DNA of 64,000 nucleotides from a virus (lineage: Duplodnaviria; Heunggongvirae; Uroviricota; Caudoviricetes): IMG/VR virus record IMGVR_UViG_3300042887_005798. One strand, 5' to 3'. The notes below the pieces were generated by a model that saw only the letters and a list, made by a program, of their open reading frames with translations, did not search any database and was not told the origin of the DNA. The first letter of the stretch is position 1, and every line of letters starts with the position of its first letter. Made by a program: the position numbers and the translations under genes. Below, piece by piece: positions 1 through 64,000 of the stretch.

Positions 1-1066
1 AAGCAATACCAACAGGGAATCTTGGAATTAAATCATCAGTTCTATCGAAATACTTTACTGTGTACATTCTTCCCACATAATCTGATTTATTATCATAGAT
101 TTCTTTTCTTGATTCCATTGTGGTTTTAGGTGTTACTTTGAAAGTATCATCTGTTAAATCATTCTTGCAGATAACAACAGCATGTCCTTCCATTTTTCCT
201 TCTCCTTCAATGATGTCTACCACAAGAAATTCAGAATCTTGGAAAGTTTTTACTTTGAGCAAATCATTAGAGCGATAACCCCAAAGATACTTACTGTCTT
301 TTTCTCTAAGCATTAGACCTTCATAGCCATTGGCTAAAAACTTGCTTTGATAGTCTGTAATAGCGTTTTTGTCATAACCAATATCATACCCACACACAAT
401 CTGTAAGCTTTGCTTATTACTAATATTAATATCAGCTAGTAATTCTAGTCTTTCCTGAGTGGTGAGGTCTTCATTGCCATTAACAACAGGATAATCATAG
501 ATGTGATACTCTAACTTCAATGAATCAGATTGTGGTTTTTTAACCAATGAAATTAAAGATTGTAAAGACAATCCATGAATGTAGATTTCACCATCAAAGA
601 CATCATCTTTACCAAGTACATCTTTTAATTGCTCGGAAATGTGCTTAACATCGTAAATCTTGCCTTGCCTTGAATACAAGACAACAGAATCTCCTTCCCA
701 TCTGGCAATACATCGTACACCATCTAGCTTAGGCTGGCAAAAATAATGTGAATTATGTTTTTTAGCATCATATTTGCCAGCAAGCATCGGTAACAATAGA
801 GGCATTTGTGCCTCTTCTTTTGTGGCTGAGTATTTCCTCTCTATTTTGAATTTATGCAGAGATTTGGACTCAGCAATAGCTTGCTCAGATGCTGTGGTGA
901 AGTTTTTCTTTCCAATGTTTTTAGGAGTGCATGTTTTTCTGGAGGTTTGTAAAGCTCCATTAACTAAGCCATACTCAGTATAAATAGAATCTCCGTCTGC
1001 CCAAGTGCGCCATTGTCGAAGTTCTCCGTTTTTGCCTTTGTGATAAAGTGTATCAAATGATGTCAT
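1..1066 (-). CDS. ATP-dependent DNA ligase (T7/PBCV-1-like), partial: C-terminal part lies left of the window
   Basis: Manual minus-strand translation from the ATG at 1066: MTSFDTLYHKGKNGELRQW...KLDGVRC (motif I KxDG), EGLMLR (motif IV), LLKVK (motif V). It is absent from the ORF track because it has no stop inside the window. A GAGAGTATAAT element lies 4 nt upstream of the ATG. Confidence 0.75.
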   Translation of the reverse strand, partial: MTSFDTLYHKGKNGELRQWRTWADGDSIYTEYGLVNGALQTSRKTCTPKNIGKKNFTTASEQAIAESKSLHKFKIERKYSATKEEAQMPLLLPMLAGKYDAKKHNSHYFCQPKLDGVRCIARWEGDSVVLYSRQGKIYDVKHISEQLKDVLGKDDVFDGEIYIHGLSLQSLISLVKKPQSDSLKLEYHIYDYPVVNGNEDLTTQERLELLADINISNKQSLQIVCGYDIGYDKNAITDYQSKFLANGYEGLMLREKDSKYLWGYRSNDLLKVKTFQDSEFLVVDIIEGEGKMEGHAVVICKNDLTDDTFKVTPKTTMESRKEIYDNKSDYVGRMYTVKYFDRTDDLIPRFPVGIA

Positions 1067-1387
1067 GCCAATTATACTCTCAGATTGTTAAATCTGGAAA
1101 AAAACCCACCTCCGAAAAGATGGGCGATTTTGTTAGCTGAAGTTTATTTGGCTTCTGCTGATGTTTTGTTATAAAAAAATGAGACAATCTGTAAAGAGCA
1201 GAAAAGGTTTGAGTTGTCAATTTTAAGTTTTATATCAATGAATTTTGACAATGGTTATTTTTCGTGAATTTTGACCACATCTTCTTCTTTTTCAATAAAC
1301 TGTTTTTCAACATACAGTGTTTTTTTTTGCTCACAGAAATAAAATATTTCTGTCAGATTGCCTCTTTGCCCCCAAAGGAGCAAAATG

Positions 1388-1873
1388 TTACAGCTCTAAA
1401 ATTTCATCATCAATAACTACTTTTTTAACTGCATTGAATTCATCCAACTGATCTTGTAATTTTTCAGACTTTTTGATTAAAGTTTTTACAATTAAGTTTT
1501 GTTGAATTACATCAATTTGAACCCTTTTTATATCGTTAGATTGTGGTCTATAATAAGACGATAAATTTTGTGAACAATCTAAGTTTTCGTAAAAAGCAAT
1601 CAATCCTTTAGTCTCAGAAAGCTCAAAAATTAGATCAGCAGAATCCGAATTACTTTTATTGATTTCTGCTTTGACCTTTACAAGAAATGCTGTGAGTTTT
1701 TCCAATTCTTTAATTGAATTATTTACATCAACTTGTAGTTTAATTTCATCAACAGGAATATCTTTGTCAACCAAGTAAGCATTATGTGCAGAAATTTCTT
1801 TTTTGATAGATGTAATTTTACTTGTGATTCGATTTTTTATTTTTAAAGCCTTCGCTAGTGATATTATAGCCAT
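1388..1873 (-). CDS. hypothetical coiled-coil protein (161 aa)
   Basis: ORF track; K/E/I-rich helical composition; CGTATAAAT element 6 nt upstream of the ATG. Confidence 0.4.
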   Translation of the reverse strand: MAIISLAKALKIKNRITSKITSIKKEISAHNAYLVDKDIPVDEIKLQVDVNNSIKELEKLTAFLVKVKAEINKSNSDSADLIFELSETKGLIAFYENLDCSQNLSSYYRPQSNDIKRVQIDVIQQNLIVKTLIKKSEKLQDQLDEFNAVKKVVIDDEILEL

Positions 1874-61523: not shown

Positions 61524-61572
61524 TATTATATATACGGTAGGTTTTTGATTAAATTTCTTTTAAAATAAGATT

Positions 61573-64000
61573 GTGTTAGATATAAAAAATAAACTTTTGT
61601 TTGCAGCTACAAAATTAACCGAAGCTCAAAAACAATATTGGGCTACTGTAATCACAGAAGAAATTTTTAAAGAAATAATTGAACACAAAGTTACAATAAC
61701 ACAAAATTTTATTTATGATTTGATTAACAATATTGATTTAAGTATAATTCAAAATTTTTTAAGATTCGAAAGAAATAAAATAATAGAAGAAAAAGTCAAA
61801 GAAAAAATAAATAAAACACCTGGCATAGAAAATTACACTGATGACGAGATTAAAGATTTAGCTGGCACAATGTCAAAAAATGTTTTTAAATATAAATCTG
61901 ATCAATGGTGGAACAAATTTTTGATTAATGGTCAATTACCTGAAGAAATTTTAGCAAAATTATCAGTGAAATATAACAGAGAAGATCTTGAAAAAAAATT
62001 AGACATGAAGTCAGTGGAAAAATCTGAAGTTCTAAATAAATTAAATGAGATGCTGGGAAGAAGTTCAGAAACAAACATGTCTCGAATAAAAACAATTGAC
62101 ACTGAATTTGGAAAAGAAACTTTTAAAAGACAATTAAATGACTTGGGTTTTGATTTTTGGTCTGAAGAAGCACCTGAACAAATCTATCGCTCTATGGTAG
62201 ATGATAATACAAAAATACTCCAAAAACTAAATACAGCCTATAATAAATCAGATAGAAATGAAGAAAAATTTTATGCATATTTGTGTGATTTATATGGTGA
62301 AGATTTGAAACTTTTGAAAGAAAGAATTCAACCATTAAAAGAAAATAAATTATTTGTAGAAGAATTTCCAGAAAAATTTAAATTTACATATTCATCACTC
62401 AAAGAAAAAAAAGTTTTATCTACTTTAAAAGAAGTTTTTAATATAAGATATATTCCCTCAAAAATGAAAATTCCATCACCAGAAGAATCAATTTATGAAT
62501 ACTTTTTAATTGACTTCATTGTGGTTTGCGATGTGTTAAAAAGCGATTTGAATGAAATAAAACAAAATGAAATTCCTGAAATTGAAACGGAAATAATGCT
62601 TGTTGGTGAATATTTCGGATACACCTTAAGTGAAAGTGATCGAAGAAAATTTGATTCTTTTTTGCAACAAAGATCTGAAAACCCAAACATTGATGAATAT
62701 AAATCATTAAGTAAAAATGAATTTAAAGTTGCTCAATATGATTTTAAACACAAAGTCAAAGTAAATGCAGAAGATAATTTCGCAAAAACAATTAATTGTA
62801 ACATAATACATTTTACTGAGCCAAAAACCGACAATCCAGAAGAAATTATAAAAATGATTCAAAAGGAATTAACAAAAAAGAATATCCTTTTTACGGTAAA
62901 CAGAGCGCCACAACGTGATACCCCTTTGGGAAGATTAATCACTTGGTATAAATCATGTAATCAAACTGATGAACAAAAACAATTTTTATCCAATTTTTTA
63001 AACATCAATAATCCTAACAATGCTGAAATAAAAATAAAATCTAGTGCACTTTCATTCATACTTGCGACAGAAAAAGAACTGGATGCAGCAATTTCTAGAA
63101 AAATATTAGAAGAATCAATTAAAATAACTAAACCTTGGATGATTGACGATAGTGTAATTGATAAAATTTCTAAAACATTTCCAGCAATAAAAGATCAAAA
63201 AAATCAAATAAAATCTATGTTGAGAAATTTTTATTTTGATTTATCTCCAAAGGAAATGAAATCAAAATATCTTAATTTGATTAGAACAGTACTTGGAGAA
63301 TCAAATTATGCAATTTATAATCAAGAACTGCAAAGAATTATAATTGAACAAGAAAAAAACATAAGATTTAAACTCAATTCATTGAATGAAAATGAACAAG
63401 AACTAAGCTCTCTCAAAGAAGAAATAAACAAAATGAGACAAAGTACTCCTTCATTCAAAGTTAAATTTCAAAAGATTAACGAATTAAAAAATTGTATCAA
63501 GCAACTAAGATTATCAGATAATGATTTAGAAAAAATAATTCAGTGGTGCAATGATATCAAAAATAAAGATGATAAAGAATTAGAACTACTCACTTTTTGT
63601 GAAAACACAGTGGTTTCTTTTAACTTGAGTAAAAATTTAAAAACAGGTTCTTTTGATTTATTGGAGAATAAAACATTAATGTACAACATCACAAAAGCAA
63701 ATATTCTAAAAAACATCGTGCGACTTTCAAGAATTGCAGATATACTTGATGAAAATACTGATAGTGAATCAGCAGAAGCAACAAAATTAATTGATGATGA
63801 AATAGGAAACTTAGCAAATGACATGCCAGTTTCAGATACAATTATTGATTCAGAAGATACGGAAAATTTGTTTCCAAGAGTGCCCACTCCAACTACAGAT
63901 GATAATTTAAAAACACAAGGTGATATGCCTCAAGAACTTAGAGGAATAGAAGAACAAGCGATGTATGATGTAATTAATTCAAGTGAATTTTCAGATATTT
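61573..64000 (+). CDS. large K/E/N-rich hypothetical protein, partial (continues beyond the window)
   Basis: Open frame with no stop from 61564 to the window end; the first in-frame start candidate is GTG at 61573 (first ATG about 61869); absent from the track because it is incomplete. Confidence 0.4.
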   Translation, partial: MLDIKNKLLFAATKLTEAQKQYWATVITEEIFKEIIEHKVTITQNFIYDLINNIDLSIIQNFLRFERNKIIEEKVKEKINKTPGIENYTDDEIKDLAGTMSKNVFKYKSDQWWNKFLINGQLPEEILAKLSVKYNREDLEKKLDMKSVEKSEVLNKLNEMLGRSSETNMSRIKTIDTEFGKETFKRQLNDLGFDFWSEEAPEQIYRSMVDDNTKILQKLNTAYNKSDRNEEKFYAYLCDLYGEDLKLLKERIQPLKENKLFVEEFPEKFKFTYSSLKEKKVLSTLKEVFNIRYIPSKMKIPSPEESIYEYFLIDFIVVCDVLKSDLNEIKQNEIPEIETEIMLVGEYFGYTLSESDRRKFDSFLQQRSENPNIDEYKSLSKNEFKVAQYDFKHKVKVNAEDNFAKTINCNIIHFTEPKTDNPEEIIKMIQKELTKKNILFTVNRAPQRDTPLGRLITWYKSCNQTDEQKQFLSNFLNINNPNNAEIKIKSSALSFILATEKELDAAISRKILEESIKITKPWMIDDSVIDKISKTFPAIKDQKNQIKSMLRNFYFDLSPKEMKSKYLNLIRTVLGESNYAIYNQELQRIIIEQEKNIRFKLNSLNENEQELSSLKEEINKMRQSTPSFKVKFQKINELKNCIKQLRLSDNDLEKIIQWCNDIKNKDDKELELLTFCENTVVSFNLSKNLKTGSFDLLENKTLMYNITKANILKNIVRLSRIADILDENTDSESAEATKLIDDEIGNLANDMPVSDTIIDSEDTENLFPRVPTPTTDDNLKTQGDMPQELRGIEEQAMYDVINSSEFSDI

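Follow-up and report, generated by a model that had tools for sequence, protein, structure and literature searches.

In Deinococcus radiodurans, the motif TANNNT lies 6–7 bp upstream of nearly a third of the open reading frames (ORFs), alongside a GGAG ribosome-binding motif, and experiments have identified it as a promoter −10 element which gives leaderless mRNAs and needs a set spacing to the ORF (PMC12340547, Zhong et al. 2025). A comparable layout was found in a 64,000-nucleotide (nt) stretch of phage DNA from the IMG/VR virus record IMGVR_UViG_3300042887_005798 (Caudoviricetes), the whole of which is called the window here. Many of its genes are preceded, a few nt before the ATG, by a box of the type YGTATAWW. 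The sequence context of these boxes makes it probable that they are promoter −10 elements with leaderless mRNAs and not translation signals. The pattern of the Actinobacteria type, modelled in GeneMarkS-2 as 'group C', is a further close relative of this layout.

Phage YS40 (phiYS40) has a guanine-plus-cytosine (GC) content of about 32% and lives on a high-GC host. For the Thermus phages YS40 and Lalka27a, most transcripts are reported to be leaderless, and class-specific −10 variants are ascribed to phage factors (cited in bioRxiv 10.64898/2026.04.20.719267). The likeness to the window lies in the large size of the phages, in promoters predicted to put the initiator-codon A or G at the transcript 5′ end and in the class-specific −10 variants, which suggest a retargeting of host RNA polymerase by phage factors. 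There are also differences: no sequence relationship was detectable, the present case is a mesophilic freshwater phage of the T4-like kind with an extracytoplasmic function (ECF) sigma factor of its own, and its late-type box is not TAGGGT. Differential RNA sequencing of phiKZ revealed no leaderless transcripts, and AR9 has 5′ untranslated regions of 26–491 nt. A survey of huge phages describing phage IF3, transfer-messenger RNA (tmRNA) and sigma genes makes no mention of leaderless expression (PMC7162821).

The window has 32% GC and is about 90% coding, with genes mainly on the minus strand. Gene starts were defined by a rule blind to the motif, as the first ATG of greedily picked non-overlapping ORFs (n = 99), and the 2224 other ATGs in the window served as background. 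A relaxed motif (TATAnn after G, or one of four AT-only hexamers, ending 4–9 nt upstream) was present at 25 of the 99 gene starts and at 71 of the 2224 other ATGs (3.2%; Fisher p = 1.8e-14), and GTATANN exactly 5–6 nt upstream at 17 and 8, respectively. The strict form CGTATAWWAT occurs in 5 copies against 0.40 expected from dinucleotide shuffles. Copies of CGTATA number 36, of which 29 are on the gene-rich strand and 7 on the opposite one. TATAAT-like hexamers are the most frequent form of the box, and the bases just before the hexamer are conserved in the sites used to train a position weight matrix (C in 13/28, G in 24/28). This matrix, a check proposed in the first-pass annotation of the window, bore out the element: scores were bimodal, and 21 of the 99 gene starts reached a score of at least 5 against 1.3% of the other ATGs, a separation that is partly circular as the training sites are the same.

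Several starts were then corrected, namely 6238 (in agreement with the Joint Genome Institute (JGI) gene call), 19125, 53027, 28294, 5598, 21092, 56509 and that of a truncated ligase gene. For the genes first placed at 19128 and 53030, the probable start is the ATG 3 nt downstream, i.e. 19125 and 53027. After correction, about 37 of about 105 genes have a box 4–12 nt upstream, 34 of them at 4–8 nt. Curated spacers are 4 nt (three cases), 5 nt (14), 6 nt (11), 7 nt (three), 8 nt (three), 9 nt (two), 11 nt (one) and 12 nt (one). Among ORFs of 60 codons or more, 26 have an ATG start after the motif, five a GTG and three a TTG, the latter two mostly gene-internal or with an ATG 3 nt away. For these genomes the box is a strong predictor of start codons and small genes, which mends at least four starts (6238, 19125, 53027, 21092) and exposes an uncalled membrane protein of 56 amino acids (aa). 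All 23 genes listed as examples in the first-pass annotation do carry the element, with the hexamer 4–9 nt before the ATG in 21 and 11–12 nt before it at 34970 and 14976. Its description as pervasive holds in so far as many genes have the box in a non-random manner; their share is roughly 25% to one third. The idea of one single cGTATAAAT-like element was abandoned, as it merges at least three promoter classes.

The parallel with Deinococcus-Thermus is close: roughly one gene in three has a −10 box within a few bp of its start, with GGAG sites elsewhere, a −35 element that is often unclear, and a motif which helps to mend the start annotation. It differs in that the present case is a phage of 32% GC with a tighter YGTATAWW, a gap of 5–6 instead of 6–7 nt and class-specific partners, and in that it is known from the sequence alone.

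The first promoter class (class 1) is composed of tTGCAAC or GAAC, a T-tract, N17 and CGTATAWW. AAC exactly 17 nt upstream of CGTATA was found at 9 sites, all on the gene strand, against 0.18 expected (dinucleotide shuffles), while each of the other spacings across N8–N25 has 0–2 sites. The dnaK promoter shows the same AAC-N17 arrangement with TGTATA instead of CGTATA. A T-tract follows AAC (AACttt, AACtttt, AACttttt or AACttttttt) at 17807, 19125, 19740, 21092 and dnaK; it is weaker at 20088 and 20463 (AACctt, AACcct) and absent at 1873, 11678 and 26558. The class-1 sites are the following, with the distance between box and ATG given in nt:

1871..1906, minus strand: ECF-type promoter GAAAC-N17-CGTATAAA, 5 nt, ATG 1873 (161-aa gene)
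11673..11698, minus strand: ECF-type promoter AAAAC-N17-CGTATAAAAT, no ORF downstream
17805..17840, minus strand: ECF-type promoter TTGCAAC-N17-CGTATATA, 5 nt, ATG 17807 (3D-domain protein); hairpin 17874-17853 directly upstream
19123..19159, minus strand: ECF-type promoter TTGCAAC-N17-CGTATAGA, 6 nt, ATG 19125 (lipoprotein-like, then Band_7); hairpin 19192-19171 directly upstream
19738..19773, minus strand: ECF-type promoter TTGCAAC-N17-CGTATAAA, 5 nt, ATG 19740; CCACACAATCT box in the spacer
20086..20121, minus strand: ECF-type promoter CGAAC-N17-CGTATAAA, 5 nt, ATG 20088
20461..20496, minus strand: ECF-type promoter TAAAC-N17-CGTATATA, 5 nt, ATG 20463; overlaps the 3′ end of the upstream ORF
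21090..21125, minus strand: ECF-type promoter AGAAC-N17-CGTATAAA, 5 nt, ATG 21092 (uncalled 56-aa protein)
26556..26610, minus strand: ECF-type promoter ACAAC-N17-CGTATATT, 24-nt leader, ATG 26558 (lipoprotein-like)
28404..28440, plus strand: dnaK promoter, GCAAC with T-tract, N17, TGTATATT, 6 nt, ATG 28438

Promoters of ECF sigma factors are marked by AAC in the −35 region and by a T-tract between −30 and −26, with spacers of 14–17 bp; in the Bacillus subtilis SigX/W/M set, the −10 region contains CGT, a CGTA there selects for SigW, and the overall form is tGAAACnTTTt ... CGTA (PMC5758882). When +1 is set to the A of the ATG at sites with 5-nt spacers, CGT occupies −13 to −11, AAC −33 to −31 and the T-tract −30 to −27. 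These positions agree with the published numbering of ECF promoters. By its sequence, AAC-N17-CGTATA is a predicted ECF-sigma promoter of the B. subtilis SigW type. It shares with the promoters of SigW and SigV (group 4) the AAC −35 element, the T-tract, the CGTA −10 element and a spacer within 14–17 bp (PMC5758882, Gaballa et al.), and a SigW-like ECF sigma factor is encoded nearby:

43033..43620, minus strand: phage ECF-type sigma factor (Sigma70_r2, r4_2 and Sigma70_ECF domains)

Of all solved structures, B. subtilis SigW (5wuq) matches it best, with E = 1.5e-16 and an alignment over nearly the full length (residues 20–185 of 195), and by analogy this phage protein would most likely be the factor reading the class-1 promoters. 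The SigW spacer has 16 nt. The phage system differs from the bacterial one by a spacer of 17 nt, by promoters that abut the starts and by a sigma factor that is phage-encoded and not autoregulated, its gene being driven by a class-2 and not an ECF-type promoter. No anti-sigma domain was found in the 147-aa gene downstream of the sigma gene. Class 1 would act like an ECF promoter set without the usual regulatory module of autoregulation and a co-transcribed anti-sigma factor. The genes served include dnaK, those of the 3D-domain protein and of two lipoprotein-like proteins, and that of the small membrane protein.

Two class-1 sites drew attention to their surroundings. The promoter at 21100-21125 points to the uncalled 56-aa protein (20922-21092, minus strand), which has two membrane-spanning segments (MKKNLVSILLVFLF...). 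The adjoining JGI ORF of 182 aa with a TTG start (20468-20940, minus strand) probably begins in truth at a GTG overlapping the TGA of the 56-aa gene (GTGA); restarted there, it would code for a P-loop-like protein (GTGKT) whose translation is coupled to that of the 56-aa gene. The second site, the perfect class-1 promoter 11673-11698, fires into an ORF-free gap of 630 nt between the secretin-N gene and a TnpB gene (11081-11708, minus strand), and the hairpin AGGGTG..CACCCT (AGGGTGaatcaCACCCT) follows directly. This gap could hold a non-coding RNA or the end of an insertion sequence (IS) element. In the strains L002, L004 and L005, different genes stand at this position.

In the second class (class 2), the 14-mer TTCCAGGTTTAACA is followed by N9 and TATAAT. 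The 14-mer is present in 11 copies against 0.86 expected (dinucleotide shuffles), always 9 nt from TATAAT or TATAGT, and the G or CG prefix before the hexamer is not conserved. Outside the window, rIIB and NAMPT have class-2 promoters. The sites in the window are:

1064..1099, minus strand: class-2 promoter TTCCAGATTTAACA-N9-TATAAT, 4 nt, ATG 1066 (ATP-dependent DNA ligase)
4022..4057, minus strand: class-2 promoter TTCCAGGTTTAACA-N9-TATAAT, 4 nt, ATG 4024 (Pyr_excise/DenV-like)
6236..6273, minus strand: class-2 promoter, 6 nt, ATG 6238 (69 aa; the JGI gene call agrees)
7385..7424, minus strand: class-2 promoter with TATAGT, 8 nt, ATG 7387; shares bases with the stop codon of the 597-aa gene upstream
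9188..9238, minus strand: class-2 promoter, 19-nt leader, ATG 9190 (597-aa helicase-like gene)
28292..28327, minus strand: class-2 promoter, 4 nt, ATG 28294 (79 aa)
33928..33983, minus strand: class-2 promoter, 24-nt leader with AGGAAG, ATG 33930
43618..43679, minus strand: class-2 promoter, 30-nt leader, ATG 43620 (ECF sigma gene)

Since class 2 drives the ECF sigma gene and rIIB, it probably acts earlier in a cascade, before the ECF sigma factor. T4 middle promoters consist of a MotA box near −30 and a sigma-70 −10 element. Class 2 is similar in having a conserved 14-bp box at about −35 to −22 together with TATAAT, in front of early- or middle-type genes (ligase, denV, rIIB). It differs by a box unrelated to the MotA box and by an ATG only 4 nt from the hexamer; no homologue of MotA or AsiA was seen within the window, to which the search was confined. 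A promoter of the B. subtilis SigB type (GTTTAA-N12-15-GGGTAT) and the T4 early GTTTAC-type −35 element were also considered, and both were dropped for misfit of spacing.

Further evidence comes from a non-coding gene. A full-length tmRNA gene is preceded by the same box at the same distance as the protein-coding genes:

42102..42486, minus strand: tmRNA gene, full-length, non-coding
42487..42501, minus strand: TGTATATATT promoter box, ending 5–7 nt before the tmRNA 5′ end at 42486

In front of the Rfam-defined 5′ end, the sequence reads TGTATATATTaatat, which leaves 5 nt between TATATT, or 7 nt between TATATA, and the first G; this distance equals the modal spacing at the ATGs. Conservation was followed in three syntenic contigs, L007, L009 and L011, whose copies of a sigma-like protein of the window (44220-44918) are 60%, 52% and 39% identical, respectively. 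In L011, TATATTaatat stands directly before the tmRNA 5′ end at 6681. All three keep YGTAYAAT, 5–6 nt and ATG at nusG, thyX, polIV and the nrdG-like gene with varying bases in between, and a Shine-Dalgarno (SD) sequence at the sigma-like gene. By inspection, about 25–30% of the called genes of L007 and L009 have the box layout, which also continues beyond the window at rIIB, NAMPT, Mom and other genes.

Boxes are also found 16–30 nt upstream of genes with leaders, some of them SD-bearing: 12758 (TAGGAG), 33930 (AGGAAG), 9190, 43008 and 43620. Strong intrinsic-terminator hairpins stand directly upstream of three boxes (17874-17853, 19192-19171 and 17380-17363), forming terminator–promoter–ATG modules. 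The box is read as a promoter because of its fixed-distance partners, the SD-led leaders downstream, the terminators upstream, the placement at tmRNA and the conservation in the relatives.

Hairpins 17853-17874 and 19171-19192 (minus strand) are identical, with GCCAGGGTGAAAAATCCCTGGC followed by T9-10, each directly before a TTGCAAC class-1 promoter; the terminator–promoter cassette appears to be a repeated unit.

The evidence for a promoter makes it unlikely that the box is a translation-initiation element lying on longer transcripts begun well upstream, be it an AU-rich non-SD site for the ribosome or S1 or one bound by the phage IF3. Such an element would explain that the box occupies the position of the SD sequence in genes lacking one, and that several boxes lie within the 3′ end of a gene that precedes on the same strand by only 2–10 nt, where read-through mRNA is expected as well. 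The phage carries an IF3, and huge phages with unusual ribosome-binding sites are on record (PMC7162821). It would not account for a box which, in two relatives, stands 5–7 nt ahead of the 5′ end of tmRNA, for boxes 16–30 nt upstream of genes having their own SD, for partners of the −35 type at fixed distance (AAC at N17, the 14-mer at N9) or for boxes directly after terminators. Moreover, the equivalent Deinococcus motif was tested and acts in transcription (PMC12340547).

It is similarly improbable that all boxes are promoters of the host housekeeping sigma factor with a weak or absent −35 element, as in Deinococcus, and that the AAC-N17 arrangement and the phage ECF sigma factor are unrelated. 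TATAAT-like hexamers are indeed the commonest form, a clean AAC is missing from most boxes, and a D. radiodurans promoter needs no more than the −10 motif (PMC12340547). The nine AAC-N17-CGTATA sites against 0.18 expected, with their T-tracts, are however an ECF signature, and C (13/28) and G (24/28) are conserved just upstream of the hexamer. A C at −13 is disfavoured by sigma-70. A scan for the sigma-70 consensus was not enriched either.

Still less probable are late promoters as in T4, with TATAAATA recognised by a factor akin to gp55 and transcription starting a few nt downstream. The genome is T4-like (rIIB, DenV, dNMP kinase, NAMPT), an orphan sigma-like protein is encoded, and TATAAATA occurs in 17 copies against 7.7 expected, 5–6 of them before genes. 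The octamer is nevertheless present in only 5–6 of about 45 boxes, and conservation falls on TATA with its G/CG (YG) prefix instead of on AAATA. Partners of the −35 type accompany about 18 boxes but are not known from T4 late promoters. The genes of the window are of early or middle type, the late geometry would put the start at or after the G of several ATGs, and a tblastn search of 50,697 phage records with the sigma-like protein found nothing. That the pattern arose by chance or from the base composition at 32% GC, where TATAAT (100 copies) and TATAAA (128) abound, is refuted by the controls, since the dinucleotide shuffles, the comparison with other ATGs, the 29:7 strand bias and the conservation in relatives all contradict it. 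Three further candidates were dropped: the Bacteroidetes promoter (TAnnTTTG) for sequence mismatch and the SD sites in use, an archaeal TATA box at about −26 for its wrong distance, and the TAAATG initiator of poxviruses and giant viruses in view of a bacterial-phage gene content (sigma factors, tmRNA).

Several points weigh against boxes as −10 elements of leaderless mRNAs. The gap between TATAAT and ATG is only 4 nt in at least six class-2 cases, three in the window and at least three beyond. It would put +1 at the fifth base after the hexamer, outside the usual range. Either RNA polymerase starts unusually close at these promoters, or the −10 element is in another register, or some of the ATGs lie off the transcript; a possible alternative register is gAnTAT, followed by 7 nt. 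The canonical sigma-70 distance from hexamer to +1 is 6 nt. The modal gap of 5 nt is 1 nt shorter, and the Deinococcus distance is 6–7 bp. A clean AAC −35 element is present at only about 10 of about 45 boxes, and the link from the sigma factor to its promoter class is drawn entirely by analogy. Neither AAC-N17-CGTATA nor the class-2 14-mer was found in the short pieces compared from the divergent relatives L007–L012, which miss the orthologous region. The generic scan for TTGACA-N17-TATAAT gave 63 sites against 63.4 expected (12–30 kb), and recognition by the host housekeeping sigma factor is therefore not evident. Finally, all statements on 5′ ends rest on geometry, and efficient leaderless translation by the host ribosomes is presumed.

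The remaining boxes were assigned to class 3, YGTAYAAT without a recognisable −35 element, or stand as individual box sites:

3406..3425, minus strand: CGTATAAT, 9 nt, ATG 3408 (thioredoxin)
5596..5611, minus strand: CGTATAAA, 5 nt, ATG 5598 (49-aa ORF)
9665..9680, minus strand: CGTATAAT, 5 nt, ATG 9667; element within the TnpB 3′ end
12582..12597, minus strand: AGTATAAT, 5 nt, ATG 12584 (secretin N-terminal domain protein)
12720..12760, plus strand: AGTATAAATA promoter-like element, 30-nt leader with TAGGAG (SD), ATG 12758; motif uncoupled from the start
14974..14996, minus strand: CGTATAAA, 12 nt, ATG 14976
17339..17353, minus strand: TATAAT, 6 nt, ATG 17341; directly after the terminator hairpin 17380-17363
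26986..27002, minus strand: TGTATAAA, 6 nt, ATG 26988
34968..34989, minus strand: CGTATAAATA, 11 nt (from the TATAAA hexamer), ATG 34970
37470..37485, minus strand: CGTATAGT, 5 nt, ATG 37472; element within the 3′ end of the upstream gene (2-nt intergenic gap)
39244..39267, both strands: divergent pair with a common palindromic core, CGTATAAT, 9 nt, ATG 39246 (minus, ClpP) and TGTATAAT, 7 nt, ATG 39265 (plus)
43006..43032, minus strand: CGTATAAT, 16-nt leader, ATG 43008
44210..44226, minus strand: CGTATAAT, 6 nt, ATG 44212 (nusG); within the 3′ end of the sigma-like gene; kept in L007, L009 and L011
45592..45607, minus strand: CGTATACA, 5 nt, ATG 45594 (NrdG-like radical-SAM activase)
48147..48165, minus strand: TGTATAAT, 8 nt, ATG 48149 (Y-family polymerase)
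51543..51559, minus strand: CGTATATT, 6 nt, ATG 51545 (thyX); AGATTGTGTGG box upstream; both kept in L007
53025..53043, minus strand: TGTATAAA, 8 nt, ATG 53027
54345..54361, plus strand: TGTATAAA, 6 nt, ATG 54359 (rmlC-like)
56495..56511, plus strand: TGTATAAA, 6 nt, ATG 56509
57483..57498, plus strand: CGTATATA, 5 nt, ATG 57496
61521..61536, minus strand: CGTATATA, 5 nt, ATG 61523 (dNMP kinase)

With respect to initiation, the 99 starts split into 25 with a box, 16 with an SD sequence, 58 with neither and none with both. SD sequences were scored as GGAG, GAGG or AGGA, or as 5-mers including the extension GGTGA; such sites occur at 16–21 of the 99 gene starts against 4–7% of the other ATGs. 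Many of the genes with neither signal overlap the upstream stop codon (ATGA) or start within a few nt of it, and translational coupling is therefore likely for them. The first-pass annotation was right that motif genes have no SD (an SD core was found in 0 of 25) and that two modes, leaderless-type and SD-led, coexist. Its three SD examples are genuine (AGGAGG at 2357, TAGGAG at 12758, GAGGA at 44918), while 'a few' understates their number. That mRNAs are mostly leaderless does not hold for genes, with about 25–35% of the leaderless type and SD-led genes nearly as frequent; it holds for primary transcripts, since some 37 boxes stand right at an ATG and only about 8 have leaders of 16–30 nt after them. 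Transcription at or next to the A of the ATG fits the −10-like box, which implies a start within about 2 nt, the start itself being deduced from geometry.

Two of these signals are combined where six paralogous genes, each coding for about 78–130 aa, stand in tandem (35013-36981, minus strand), an array found in L007 and L009 too. Each gene overlaps the previous stop codon (ATGA) and is preceded by a conserved CAGATTTGGGTGA(A/G)TGA, in which GGTGA matches the extended SD.

A mechanism can be proposed in which YGTATAWW is the −10 region, and host core RNA polymerase with a factor of the sigma-70 family would read the phage promoters. In about a third of the genes, where TATAnn ends 4–8 nt (mostly 5–6) before the ATG, the transcript would start within about 2 nt of the A and contain no SD, and such a 5′-AUG message would be translated as leaderless mRNA. 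Class 2 would fire first and drive the ECF sigma factor, which would then read class 1, while operon-internal genes would use GGAG-type SD sequences or stop/start coupling. The exact start, the pairing of sigma factors with classes and the mode of translation are all inferred here.

The phage IF3 (4940-5452, minus strand) has both the N- and C-terminal domains and an ATG start. In E. coli, IF3 disfavours leaderless mRNAs. The phage protein is possibly relevant to leaderless translation, and its link with leaderless messages becomes testable. A broader scenario is tentative and rather doubtful: the T4-like freshwater lineage may have replaced the early sigma-70/MotA/gp55 programme of T4 by its own sigma cascade (the class-2 box, then the SigW-like ECF sigma factor and the orphan sigma), giving mostly leaderless primary transcripts, with its own IF3 (plus NusG and tmRNA) tuning host ribosomes toward 5′-AUG translation or timing it.

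A promoter layout abutting the start is of an already known kind; the instance in a T4-like, mesophilic, uncultured lineage is new, and its unusual added feature is a set of ECF-type promoters alongside an ECF sigma factor of the phage. Should the starts map at the ATGs, systematic leaderless expression would extend beyond Deinococcus-Thermus, Actinobacteria and a few Thermus phages to such a lineage. If true, the promoter assignment would also give a clear phage-encoded ECF sigma factor whose regulon can be read from the sequence and takes in dnaK as well as several envelope- or lipoprotein-like genes. The host would be constrained as well, in that it must translate both SD-led and 5′-AUG mRNAs, as hosts of the Terrabacteria type do.

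The window encodes TyrRS, GatB, DnaK, a Y-family polymerase, NusG, an NrdG-like activase, ThyX and a secretin-N protein, as well as the ATP-dependent DNA ligase, dNMP kinase, thioredoxin, a GH108 lysozyme, DenV/Pyr_excise, IF3 and the ECF-type sigma factor, and a protein common to KVP40-like and Stenotrophomonas T4-like phages. Its proteins recur on freshwater metagenome contigs. One of these, of 174,109 bp, is present in NCBI and JGI (GCA_043531625.1, JBFDQA010005514.1) and carries T4 rIIB, Mom, NAMPT, AdoHcy hydrolase and glycosyltransferases just beyond the window. From the phage-type features (DenV/Pyr_excise, thioredoxin, GH108 lysozyme, the protein shared with KVP40-like and Stenotrophomonas phages) together with rIIB and its neighbours, the source is therefore a large, uncultured, T4-like freshwater phage with a contig of at least 174 kb. 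Among the JGI samples in which this phage occurs are 3300008108, 3300042914 and 3300044568. Megablast of 20 kb of the window against the 50,697 phage records gave no match, and the viral contigs of IMG/VR yielded none either, whether queried with protein or with an exact 32-mer. The 845-aa, 597-aa and sigma-like proteins are essentially without relatives among isolated phages.

In a pattern-limited scan with one genome per GTDB species, DnaK was closest to that of Armatimonadota (Fimbriimonadales), with 59–62% identity. The Armatimonadota loci with dnaK matches have 56% GC and a small TANNNT peak 6 nt before the starts, plus SD sites. This link is a weak hint and gives no host assignment.

The second, orphan sigma-like protein is encoded next to nusG:

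44220..44918, minus strand: sigma-like protein with SD-led start (GAGGA)

It has 232 aa, about 10 metagenomic homologues among 5.8 billion proteins and weak similarity in region 2, and may read one of the promoter classes. The genes for the sigma-like protein, NusG and the ECF sigma factor (43033-44918, minus strand), then tmRNA, form a cluster which is syntenic in L007, L009 and L011.

An 11-mer, CCACACAATCT (reverse complement AGATTGTGTGG), is present in 31 copies with at most one mismatch, on both strands, against 1.2 expected. Examples are 12687-12719, 19757-19767, 20105-20115, 20480-20490, 21109-21119, 50635-50675, 51579-51589 and 60826-60836. Many copies lie close to promoters: four class-1 promoters have one in their spacer, and others stand some 20–45 nt upstream of the starts of thyX, gatB, 12758 and 30397, the one at thyX being kept in L007. 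The 11-mer may be the operator of a phage regulator.

Three TnpB genes (OrfB_IS605 / Cas12f-like TNB) lie in the 64 kb, at 9674-11080, 21428-22591 and 45629-46846. Their presence varies among near-identical strains, and L001 and L002 differ at two sites. Adjoining thyX, a gene at 51564-52523 (minus strand), kept in L007 and L009, codes for a short adenylosuccinate-synthetase-like (PurA/PurZ-like) protein of 319 aa, which is under the PurA cut-offs and matches the PurZ model with E = 6e-30. By sequence, this PurZ-like protein and ThyX raise the possibility of a modified-base (2-aminoadenine) metabolism. In L009 (4003-6192), the ThyX orthologue is split by an intein with an HNH domain and reaches 729 aa, against 278 aa in the window.

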